In this document: positions 57,073 to 61,595 of the stretch, in pieces
Numbering within the stretch: position 1 is the first letter of the stretch
How the letters are laid out: every line of letters starts with the position of its first letter
From: a virus
Strand: one strand, 5' to 3'
Virus record (IMG/VR): IMGVR_UViG_3300049749_000001
Location: 1-61,595 of that record
Length of the DNA: 61,595 bases
Notes under the pieces: model-generated
Told to the model about the DNA's origin: nothing
Seen by the model: only the letters and a program-made list of their open reading frames with translations
Databases searched by the model: none
Program-made: the position numbers and the translations under genes

Positions 57073-60000
57073 ATGCCGCTAGAACCCCTCATACCCGAAC
57101 CCGACGAAGAAGTACGGCGCGACCTGATTCCCCTCCCGAAACCGAGAGACTTCAGCGGCGCACTCGGACAGAAGTACGGTAGCCTCGCCGGCGAACCATC
57201 TTCGCTCGGCGGCGAACCAAGAGAGGGCACGTTCGGCGGGTTCCTGGCCAAGAAGTACGGTGCAACGGAAGCACCGGCACAACCGCAGAAAGCACCGAAG
57301 GAGGACAGCTATGCGGGGCGTGGCTTCAAGGAATCGTTTCAGCAGATACCGCAGCTAGGGCACGGGCTCAAGGCGATTGCGGGCGCCACCATCGAAGGGA
57401 TAGCGGGGGAGGGCGGGCTAGGGTCCGCCATGAAGCGATCAGGCGTGGAGGGGTACCAGAAGGCCGGGGATGAAATTGCCAAGAATGCCAAGCCTACCGA
57501 CTCGTGGAACTACTCGTTTGACAAGGCACAGAAGGACGGCGATACGGACGCCCTGCAAAAGTGGGTGCTTCACGGCATAGGGTACGTTGGCGGGCAGATA
57601 GGCCAAACGCTGCTGACGGCTGGCATAGGCGCCGTTGGCGGAAAATTCGTGGCCAGCGTGGCGGCAAAGCAGATTGCCGAGGGGATGGTAGCGAAAGAGG
57701 CGGCGAAGATTGCGACCTCCGAAGCGGGCAAGAAACTCGCCCGGGATGAAGTGCAGGAATTGGCAACCAAGGCGGTAGCCAAGAAGTTCGCCACCGTAGG
57801 CACGAATGCGGCACTGGCAGGGTCCGCCCTGGGGATGGAAGGCGGCGAGATAGGCGGAGACTTGGCGGCGCAATCGGTAAAGGAAGGGCGCACGCTTACG
57901 GGTTCGGAATTGGGCAAGGCGTTTGCCTCAACCCTGGCAGCGGGCGGACTGGAGTTTGTTGGGGACCGCCTGGGACTGGACATACTGCTAGGCAAATCGC
58001 CCCTGCTTAAACCGGCAGCGAGCGCACCGGGAGTATCGGGGCGGATCCAGCGGGGCGCGATTGCGGGCACCGCGGCGGCGCCTATCGAGGGCGCTACCGA
58101 ATTCGGTCAAACCATGATCGAGGAATACGGCAAGGGCAACGACCCGTTTAGTCCCGAAACCATCCACCATGCAAAGGACGCCGGGGCATTGGGCGTATTG
58201 GGCGGCGGGCTGGCGGGCGGCGTAGGCGGGTTCATGTCACCGCAACAGCAGGAAGCGGAACAGGCGCCACCGAAACAACCGGACCCCCTTGGATTGCCGC
58301 AACTGCCAAACGAGCCGTTTATCGTCTTTCCAGACGGAACGACAGGCACGCGCCGACAAGCCGACGAATACATCAACGGACTGCCACCGGAGCAGCAACC
58401 AGCGGCACGCGCGAAGCTGATGGGACTCGGACCGCAGGACGCGACCATTAACGGCAAACCGGCGCGGCAACAGTCAAACGCAACGCTCAATTACGTGCTC
58501 AAGCGGGGCGGATTGCGGGCACAGGCGGCGGCGGAAGCAGAGCTGAAACGACGCGCAGCGGAAGGCGTGGATCCCGAAGTTGCGGACGCGCCGGAAACCA
58601 CGGCGGAAGCAGTCTCTACAATCATCGCTACAGGCCGCGAGAAGGCCGCAGAGATACACGCGGGCGCAGATGGTACCCAAGTACCGGATGAGCCAACGCC
58701 GGAGCCTGTAGGCACGCTCAACGCGCAGATGGCGGCATTTGCAGAGGGGAGAAAGCCGGGAGTATTGCTGACGCCTGGGGAACCCATGCCTACCAGCTTG
58801 CCACCGGACGCGAAAACGGCGGGGATACCCGGACACGGCACGCTCATCTACCGCGACGATGCAACCCTGCAAGCAGCTCTAAACGGTCAACTCGGTACTG
58901 CCCTGGGCTACGGCATAGACGAGAAACCGAACAGCACGCTCGCAGTGACCGCACGCGATGCGAACGGTACTGTGATCCAGGATGTGCTCACGGACGGCAG
59001 CGAGGACGTGAACAAGGCAGCGGCCACCGTTGCCGGTCCAGATGGGACGGTAGAGGTAAGGCCGGCAGCGGAAGCAATGGCGGAGCGTGAGCAAGCCAAG
59101 GCACCCCGCTTCAAGGTTAACGCCAAGATCAGCCCGGATCACAACCCCATAGAGGAATCATTGCGGGCCAGGGTGGAGGATGCCCTCAACAATCACCCGG
59201 ATTCGTACCACCTCTCTAAAGATGGCTTTATAGGCTTGCCCAAGAAGGAAGGTAACAACGCGGGCGGTTCGTTCAAGGTCGAGGCTGACGGCAGCGTACG
59301 GATGTTCAGGGACAACGGTTTTGGTTTTAACAACACCATGACCAATGCCAGCATAGAAAAGACGCTGAAGCAATGGCTGAAGGACGTTGATGAGAAGAAA
59401 ACATCAGTAAGTCAGGCCAGACTTACGGAGAATGTGAGTAAGTCAGGCCAGACGCCACACGACGAGGACAGGGCGGCACTGGTAGCAAAAGACCCGAACA
59501 CGCAATTCAAGGTCAACAGTATCGTAGCTTTGACCGGCCAGCATGAAATCAGCGAGGACTTGCGCGCAAGGGTTGAGCACGCCCTGAACAATTCGCGTGA
59601 TTCGTACGAGGTTGTCCATGACCGTATAAGGCTGCTTCCGGCTAAAGACAGGTTCGGCGGGCAGGGTGAATTCCTGGTCAAGGAGGACGGAACGGTTTGG
59701 CTTCTCGGGGATGATGACCATCGGTGGGGATCAACCATGAGCCAAGCCAGCGTGAACAAGACGCTCAAGGATTGGCTGAAAGACGTCGACGCAAAGAAGA
59801 GCGCACCACAAAAGCCACAAAAGCCACAAAAGCCTGATACCCCTGATACCCCTGAAACCCTTGGAGTAGACGACAAGGAACTAGCGAAGATCGTCCAGGA
59901 GTTCAACAGCCGCCAGGAGGCGATGTTCGAGGACGAACAGGCAGTAACGAACATATTTGTCGGACCCACGAAAAAGGAAATCGTACGGCTGGCAGACAAG

Positions 60001-61595: not shown

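Follow-up and report, generated by a model that had tools for sequence, protein, structure and literature searches.

The window analysed here, the 61,595-nt linear record IMGVR_UViG_3300049749_000001, carries at its two ends the parts of a giant open reading frame (ORF). After rotation of the contig and renewed ORF calling, this ORF extends over 17,634 nt (5,877 codons plus a stop codon, with zero internal stops) and encodes a protein of 5,877 aa and 645.5 kDa; amino acid positions below refer to this rotated giant ORF. Very probably, this ORF represents one genuine gene in a podophage genome of ~61.5 kb, which was assembled as a circle and is distantly akin to the 933W/Bcep22/PEp14/8P group, and encodes a 645-kDa DarB-like polyvalent protein.

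A giant gene spanning the ends of the record

The first 127 nt of the window are exactly the same as its last 127 nt, leaving a unique circle of 61,468 bp. Terminal identity over 127 bp is what an assembler operating with k = 127 normally leaves behind when it closes a circular, or circularly permuted, molecule. From the ATG at position 57073, 1,507 codons follow without a stop up to the window end, and frame 3 has no stop between nt 3 and the TAA at 13236–13238, the overlap being read in the same frame from both sides. The claim of the initial annotation that one uninterrupted ORF of about 5,877 codons crosses the junction is borne out by this identity and agreement of frame, and the share of the genome, put there at about 29 percent, is 28.7% of the circle (17,634/61,468). 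An in-frame stop codon at 57070–57072, which also terminates the preceding gene, directly abuts the ATG at 57073, which is therefore the earliest possible start. The gene and the overlap are laid out in the record as follows:

57073..61468, + strand, 5′ part of the giant ORF (aa 1–1465 plus base 1 of codon 1466)
1..13238, + strand, 3′ part of the giant ORF (bases 2–3 of codon 1466, aa 1467–5877 and the TAA at 13236–13238)
61469..61595, no strand, assembly overlap closing the circle (127-bp exact copy of nt 1–127; codes for aa 1466–1508)

Given the base composition, the chance of 5,877 stop-free codons is ~1e-94, and the remaining five frames contain 84–239 stops each. The coding signature is equally regular: GC content at the first and at the third codon position exceeds that at the second in 19 out of 19 consecutive 300-codon segments of the giant ORF, junction included. 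The junction also falls within a recurrent domain, module J (aa 1355–1485, ~130 aa), which opens in the unique sequence at the 3′ end of the window and is completed within the overlap, so that the 5′ end of the window begins mid-domain. In an exhaustive HMMER search, this module, with the landmarks KMSLDEFSIAY ... FEVSGEEIG ... GTLTVDVEELYKKV, recurred collinearly in at least 10 other large proteins. A word-index search without a homologue had suggested that aa 1290–1930 were an orphan or artefactual insert; this idea was rejected, the exhaustive HMMER search yielding 142 matches and at least four recurrent modules.

It had further been predicted that a pipeline working on the linear record would split or truncate the gene, and the linear ORF listing indeed shows no more than a piece of 4,405 aa. 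Similar damage is seen in the RefSeq entry for phage Itty13 (NC_070969.1; loci L001 and L087). Its 4,756-aa minus-strand frame runs from 12,337 through the record ends (1 and 61,818) to 59,888, and the record has in its place a 630-aa stub, gp84 (‘DarB-like antirestriction’), and three antisense ORFs, gp01–gp03 (‘hypothetical protein’).

Modular architecture and family membership

The module map was drawn from scans of the Pfam, PHROG and NCBIfam libraries together with 86 related loci and a comparison of 200 proteins:

57205..58272, + strand, N-leader (aa 45–400), Gly/Ala-rich bundle of long alpha-helices with hydrophobic segments at aa 179–198 and 370–389
59110..59805, + strand, tandem duplication of a ~100-aa domain (aa 680–779 and 812–911, 46% identical)
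60109..60756, + strand, C5-cytosine-methyltransferase-like module (aa 1013–1228; phrog_757, 5e-42)
61135..61467 plus nt 3–59, + strand, module J (aa 1355–1485; exhaustive HMMER)
72..1064, + strand, small recurrent modules with Pro-rich linkers between them (aa 1490–1570, 1574–1625 and 1719–1820; none in Pfam)
aa 2165–2295, Gly-rich linker (sequence composition)
2502..3584, + strand, N6-adenine DNA methyltransferase (MTase), Eco57I/N6_Mtase (aa ~2300–2660; Pfam)
4896..6884, + strand, SNF2/SF2 helicase (aa ~3098–3760; Pfam ResIII, SNF2-rel and Helicase_C)
8307..8939, + strand, zincin-like metallopeptidase (aa 4235–4445; phrog_873)
9897..10379, + strand, ART-PolyVal ADP-ribosyltransferase (aa 4765–4925; Pfam 45–52 bits, cut-off 31.2)
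10392..13235, + strand, C-terminal ~950-aa, mostly alpha-helical region (aa 4930–5877)
12219–12296, + strand, hydrophobic helix (aa 5539–5564), just before LPD38
12312–12899, + strand, LPD38 (aa 5570–5765; Pfam 126–130 bits, cut-off 27)

The giant protein matches phrog_10089, ‘DarB-like antirestriction’, with E = 0 and 1,638 bits, and its core of ~1,600 aa is 41% identical to proteins of PEp14, Itty13, VvAW1 and LASTA, with homologues in 147 phage records and, by a core profile search, 254 IMG/VR relatives. Homology places it among the phage-type polyvalent proteins, in the DarB-like family of 933W/Bcep22/PEp14-like podophages. The assignment to DarB-like or polyvalent proteins made in the initial annotation is hence upheld, both by the phrog_10089 match and by the presence of the MTase–SNF2 dyad, ART-PolyVal and LPD38. 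Polyvalent proteins contain 2–15 domains, and one prophage protein has five enzymatic domains (PMC5512222). P1 DarB is the archetype of the MTase–SF2 dyad, the zincin peptidase is the commonest hub of the class, and LPD38 is restricted to phages (PMC5512222). The hallmarks found here are a length above 2,000 aa, the combination of unrelated modules (five enzymatic ones, LPD38 and at least six more) and a late, virion gene context.

The N6-MTase lies N-terminal to the SNF2 helicase, which is the order of the DarB dyad, and the two form a universally conserved core (aa ~2200–3900). Their motifs are intact (EPGSGVGNF for motif I and NPPF for motif IV in the MTase; GSGKT, DEAH and QREGR in the helicase), and the catalytic motifs of both are invariant in the family alignment. 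The C5-like module retains P1084-C1085 and E1130-N1131-P1132. The zincin, to which no Pfam model matched, has H4319-E4320-x-x-H4324 plus E4373 conserved in 15 homologues, and the ART module has H4791 and Y4852 conserved in a 12-sequence alignment. The C-terminal region is common to Stx/933W-like, Ralstonia and MetMV viruses. Modules of ~60–400 aa and nine Pro-rich linkers make up the chain, and the string of small modules spans aa 1355–1994. In DarB, an LPD36 domain directly precedes the MTase; here, aa 1467–2300 gave no Pfam match at E ≤ 5, although aa ~2050–2165 are conserved with other giants. The tandemly duplicated domain (aa 680–911) had no homologue in 83 related loci or in a word-index search. 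Searches of the unannotated stretches against Pfam at E ≤ 5 returned nothing credible, those against PDB sequences only a marginal SNF2 match, and Foldseek comparisons of AlphaFold2 models of the N-leader and the C-terminal region with the PDB no significant match.

Several further observations concern individual modules. The ~50-aa mini-domain at aa 1574–1625 (window 324–479), which no Pfam family covers, shows 45–60% identity to dozens of stand-alone proteins of 50–100 aa and also occurs inside other giants. Most family members have a single strongly hydrophobic helix ~280–340 aa from the C-terminus, before LPD38, and their most Gly/Ala-rich 300-aa segment near the N-terminus. The half comprising the zincin, ART and C-terminal regions (aa ~4235–5842; window 8300–13130) is 30% identical to the product of positions 38104–42585 of Methanosarcina virus MetMV (MK170447.1). 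This MetMV protein is the top match by coverage in the phage collection, which suggests, at the level of homology, that a delivery/effector cassette crosses the divide between the viruses of bacteria and archaea.

The closest named counterparts, namely Bcep22 gp75, JC1 gp69, PEp14 gp27, 8P gp023 and those of Itty13- and SopranoGao-like podophages (phrog_10089; ‘DarB-like antirestriction’/PLxRFG), are homologous in the core (34–41% over ~1,600 aa), reside in ~60-kb genomes at the same gene position and are likewise poor in cysteine; 8P also has a C5-MTase-like module (50% identity). The giant described here is 700–1,400 aa longer, carrying the leader, which is a separate gene in relatives, and ~640 aa of extra modules, and neither its first ~990 aa nor its last ~2,000 aa have homology to the proteins of PEp14 or 8P. 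With the polyvalent proteins described previously (PMC5512222) it has in common the MTase–SF2 dyad, the zincin hub, ART, LPD38 and the late context, but the N-leader, the tandem repeat, modules J and K, the mini-domain and the greater part of the C-terminal region fall outside the LPD families of Pfam.

P1 DarB, presumed to be packaged in the head and to protect DNA in cis, has the same MTase–SNF2 dyad; P1, however, is a myovirus in which packaging of DarB depends on DarA, Hdf and DdrA, none of which was seen in our scan of 30 window ORFs, and the giant has enzymatic modules beyond the dyad. P1 DarB is 2,255 aa long, and the giant is ~2.6 times longer. The N4 vRNAP gp50 (~3,500 aa, 383 kDa) is, similarly, a giant multi-domain podophage protein stored in the head, with loose connections and a probably membrane-active N-terminus (PMC13434306), but the two lack sequence homology and the cargo here consists of anti-defence and modification enzymes. 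No RNA polymerase family was found in the Pfam, PHROG and NCBIfam scans of the whole protein; N4 vRNAP serves as a mechanistic analogy only.

Size relative to other family members

Lengths were compared over the 53 complete frames among the best 80 of the 254 IMG/VR loci. They range from 2,569 to 6,102 aa (median 4,389), four being at least 5,000 aa long, and only one exceeds 5,877 aa. This protein, from locus L031 (IMGVR_UViG_3300033151_000226), has 6,100 aa, takes up ~31% of its 58,994-bp contig and, with InPase, C5-like, N6-MTase, SNF2 and LPD38 modules, is as enzyme-rich as the giant described here. The HMMER search also recovered the family members P0094 (6,391 aa) and P0064 (5,903 aa), which have modules in common with the giant in a different order. 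Modules in common between the giant and these three include the C5-like one (38–64%), the core (53% in P0064), ART and LPD38, and the three contain 0–2 cysteines; they differ from it in having no N-leader, L031 in carrying InPase and P0094 in having module K before the C5-like module. Annotated relatives at the same position are 4,914 aa (PEp14 gp27) and 5,145 aa (8P gp023) long, and JC1 gp69 has 4,515 aa, or 22% of the JC1 genome (PMC9144972).

A record size is thus ruled out by L031, P0094 and P0064, and the giant is not an outlier but belongs to the upper tail of a continuous distribution. The earlier description of its size as extreme holds in so far as it lies in that tail, but not in the sense of being exceptional. 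Nor can its set of enzymatic modules be called unusually large, as was proposed, since five are ordinary for a class with 2–15 domains and L031 is equally rich. What is new is a large member; the class of giant DarB-like polyvalent proteins is already known.

Modular accretion as the origin of the length

Only aa ~2200–3900 are common to all relatives, and every module outside this core occurs in a subset of them; the giant is therefore a mosaic. The clearest case is the N-leader, which in most relatives is a separate gene of ~1,000 codons. In all 33 homologues found, it forms the N-terminus of stand-alone proteins of 566–1,740 aa, some of which carry SLT, glucosaminidase or InPase cargo. In relative L007 (core 58% identical), it heads a separate gene for a 1,085-aa protein immediately before the gene for a 3,336-aa DarB-like protein, and a profile scan detected a divergent fused leader at the N-terminus of the 4,511-aa giant of L076. 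Judging from these stand-alone, separate and fused copies, the N-leader behaves like a portable unit at protein N-termini whose cargo varies, the cargo here being a complete DarB-like giant. The fused copy in L076 led us to reject the idea of a fusion unique to the giant described here.

AlphaFold2 modelling from 32 sequences predicted the N-leader to be a bundle of long helices (predicted local distance difference test score 76, with 165 residues at 90 or above). In a Foldseek comparison with viral models, its sole matches were to the initial segments of further long proteins of podophages, of which some are annotated as RelA/SpoT, LPD-containing or helicase, and a tblastn search against annotated phages gave no match, to which the low-complexity filter may have contributed. 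The closest core relative, L004 (68%), is laid out unlike both the window and L007, a 456-aa antisense ORF (7823–9193, − strand) lying between the gene for a 1,432-aa protein upstream and the DarB-like gene.

Segments homologous to aa 985–1285 and 1928–1994 are adjacent in 8P, so that the ~640 aa of small modules between them represent an insertion relative to 8P. The length of the giant can accordingly be ascribed to modular accretion, through fusion of the N-leader and insertion of ~640 aa of small modules relative to 8P.

Cysteine depletion

The giant contains two cysteines in 5,877 aa, where the cysteine content of the remaining window genes (0.86%) would predict ~50 (Poisson P ~1e-19), and both (aa 1083 and 1085; window 60319–60327) belong to the catalytic PCTDF loop of the C5-like module. 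The property extends to the family: the 53 complete giants contain 132 cysteines in 228,121 residues, or 0.06%, versus 0.90% in the flanking same-strand ORFs, a 15-fold difference, and PEp14 gp27 and P0064 have none. The word ‘cysteine’ has no occurrence in the paper on polyvalent proteins (PMC5512222), and a text search of a review of ejection proteins and of the N4 paper gave none either. We infer that the depletion is an adaptation that allows the protein to be stored, and to traverse the tail and periplasm, in a non-native state.

Genomic context

Genes upstream of the giant on the same strand encode, according to the PHROG scan, a terminase, a portal, a major head protein, tail fibres and an internal virion protein, as in a tailed phage:

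36097–37350, + strand, terminase large subunit
37155–39446, + strand, portal
40594–41862, + strand, major head protein
43847–46411, + strand, tail fibre proteins
48153–48695, + strand, endolysin-like protein (overlaps the start of the internal virion gene as listed)
48590–50728, + strand, internal virion protein
53497–54303, + strand, acetyltransferase (phrog_1249)
54281–55378, + strand, virion structural protein of 365 aa (phrog_8003)
55375–57072, + strand, 565-aa protein with no family

The giant is the last gene of this virion module. The two proteins directly before it (365 and 565 aa) are rich in Ala, Gly, Asn and Gln, contain Gly-Met-Ala repeats, have one and no cysteine, respectively, and are presumed to be internal virion or ejection proteins. 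The initial annotation had placed the giant at the distal end of the virion operon, right after two low-complexity proteins of internal-virion type, and this description stands, one of the two matching phrog_8003. The acetyltransferase gene has a counterpart in Itty13, where an acyl-CoA N-acyltransferase is encoded at the equivalent place, which suggests a conserved partner upstream of the giant.

Downstream of the giant, the coding strand switches to a recombination and regulation module with a serine recombinase/DNA invertase (15669–16301, − strand) and a RecE/RecT pair (24528–27223, − strand); a 91-aa ORF with no family (13248–13523) directly follows the giant. A stand-alone DNA methyltransferase (phrog_67) is encoded at 28996–30060 and, together with RecE/RecT and the recombinase, suggests that the phage is temperate or proficient in recombination. 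Unlike in PEp14, 8P and JC1, no lysis cassette comes after the giant gene; the only endolysin-like ORF (48153–48695) lies within the structural module.

The best matches of the major head protein are only 35–48% identical and belong to Achromobacter phage CF418P1, Pseudomonas phage 8P and Stx2/933W-like, Ralstonia and Burkholderia podophages, so that the phage is a distant, unclassified member of the 933W/8P-type supergroup. A search of bacterial genomes for the host returned three distant (32–37%) Firmicutes loci only and was uninformative.

A proposed route from virion to host cell

In the mechanism that we propose, the giant would be made late and packed into the head, as shown for relatives only: 51 unique peptides of JC1 gp69 were recovered from CsCl-purified virions, where it was the second best-scoring protein (PMC9144972). 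Upon infection, it would enter the short tail together with the DNA or before it and be threaded through as loose beads on a string, its passage being eased by the Pro-rich linkers and the near-absence of cysteine. A precedent is offered by N4 vRNAP, a chain of ~3,500 aa that passes a channel of ~35 Å (PMC13434306). The giant is built along similar general lines, with its modules of ~60–400 aa, its nine Pro-rich linkers, a Gly-rich helical N-terminus bearing hydrophobic segments and a hydrophobic helix ~300 aa before the C-terminus. The N-leader and the C-terminal LPD38 region could act as conserved ends for delivery and anchoring. Once inside the cell, the modules would be active at once: the N6-MTase and SNF2 translocase, perhaps with the C5-like module as a possible second modification, may, in the way put forward for DarB, shield the incoming DNA in cis against restriction, while the ART may modify a host target and the zincin peptidase may divide the chain into functional units. 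A rough calculation with standard protein and DNA densities gives one copy a volume equivalent to far less than 1 kb of packaged DNA; the giant would hence be costly in genetic terms (29% of the genome) rather than in space.

A stronger version of this proposal, which we consider possible although doubtful, is that the whole 645-kDa chain crosses the tail and periplasm unfolded or bead by bead, that the family-wide purge of cysteines, of which 0–2 are left in 4,000–6,000 residues, adapts it to this passage (avoiding, for example, disulfide trapping by Dsb or metal-mediated cross-links in the capsid) and that the N-leader is a portable ejection leader able to bring along any cargo, whether a lysozyme or an effector train of 5,500 aa.

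Alternative explanations

Several points weigh against the interpretation of the ORF as a single gene for a virion-delivered polyvalent protein. An exact-protein look-up of the product of the 3′ piece gave no record, an IMG/VR search with the junction segment no relative and a search of the JGI metagenomes for the exact junction-spanning DNA pattern 0 matches. None of the partners DarA, Hdf, DdrA and DdrB was detected among the 30 window ORFs scanned against PHROGs, some small ORFs falling outside the scan; packaging partners of the DarA/Hdf type are also absent in Lessieviruses (PMC9144972). The YHGT motif of the ART has diverged to VHVS, and the module may be inactive; the 12-sequence alignment gave no confident catalytic triad or acid. 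The depletion of cysteine could have other causes, the delivery or anchoring role of the terminal modules is a conjecture because no structure of known function matched them, and the steps of packaging, ejection, processing and function proposed for this phage derive from homology and gene position. The null results around the junction bear most directly on the suggestion that the window ends are not adjacent, or that a collapsed repeat or an introduced indel falsely fused two truncated genes, which we judge to be very unlikely. It is true that the support for the join is the k-mer-sized 127-bp overlap, with no independent contig across it, that the junction sits in a stretch (aa 1286–1927) absent from the closest annotated giant, that of 8P, and that the upstream part is a separate gene in L007 and L004. 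Each half is, however, incomplete alone, the 5′ one lacking a stop and the 3′ one a start, and the overlap agrees with both in frame; the coding signature is uniform across the junction, and module J, which begins in the unique 3′ sequence and runs on into the overlap, matches ten homologues collinearly. Moreover, the point of N-leader fusion lies between aa 400 and 930, in contiguous window sequence far from the junction, C5-like modules occur within the giant ORFs of 8P, L015, L031 and L050, and Itty13 shows the same wrap-around of record ends. A collapsed tandem repeat would merely mean a longer ORF.

If the frame is accepted as continuous, it might still not yield a single 645-kDa chain: internal initiation or rapid cleavage by the zincin, during or after translation, could give rise to separate proteins, making the giant one at the DNA level only. 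The modules do exist apart from one another elsewhere, the N-leader in L007 and the 33 stand-alone homologues and the mini-domain in homologues of 50–100 aa; the zincin is conserved with its catalytic residues intact, peptidase-driven processing has been proposed as a model for the class, and P1 DdrB is processed before packaging (PMC5512222). We nevertheless regard this outcome as improbable, given that the relatives have kept frames of 2,600–6,100 codons open across large evolutionary distances, which speaks for selection on continuity, and that N4 vRNAP, ArdC and TraC1 are transferred full-length (PMC5512222). Least credible of all appears to us the idea that the giant is neither packaged nor ejected but acts as a late intracellular protein, methylating progeny DNA, for example, or as a structural scaffold. 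The stand-alone DNA MTase encoded at 28996–30060 does indicate that methylation matters during replication, but the gene closes the virion module behind internal-virion-like proteins, its homologue JC1 gp69 is present in purified virions, LPD38 and ART-PolyVal typify polyvalent proteins that are delivered, and the 15-fold cysteine depletion is common to the neighbouring ejection-type proteins and not to other genes. A single gene encoding a DarB-like polyvalent protein thus remains the interpretation that we favour.

Implications

The giant provides a clean example of a gene destroyed by the standard annotation of linear contigs, of which Itty13 shows the damage, and many giants would be recovered if circular or permuted phage contigs were rotated before genes are called. 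The analysis also yields three leads, namely the portable N-leader, several undescribed recurrent small modules and the extreme avoidance of cysteine as a possible signature of passage through the tail channel. Should the stronger version of the delivery proposal be true, cysteine depletion combined with the leader would constitute a predictor of ejected phage proteins from sequence only, and the giant would rank with the largest substrates known for any channel that translocates proteins. The commitment of 29% of a phage genome to a single delivered multi-enzyme protein would underline the strength of selection on early anti-defence.

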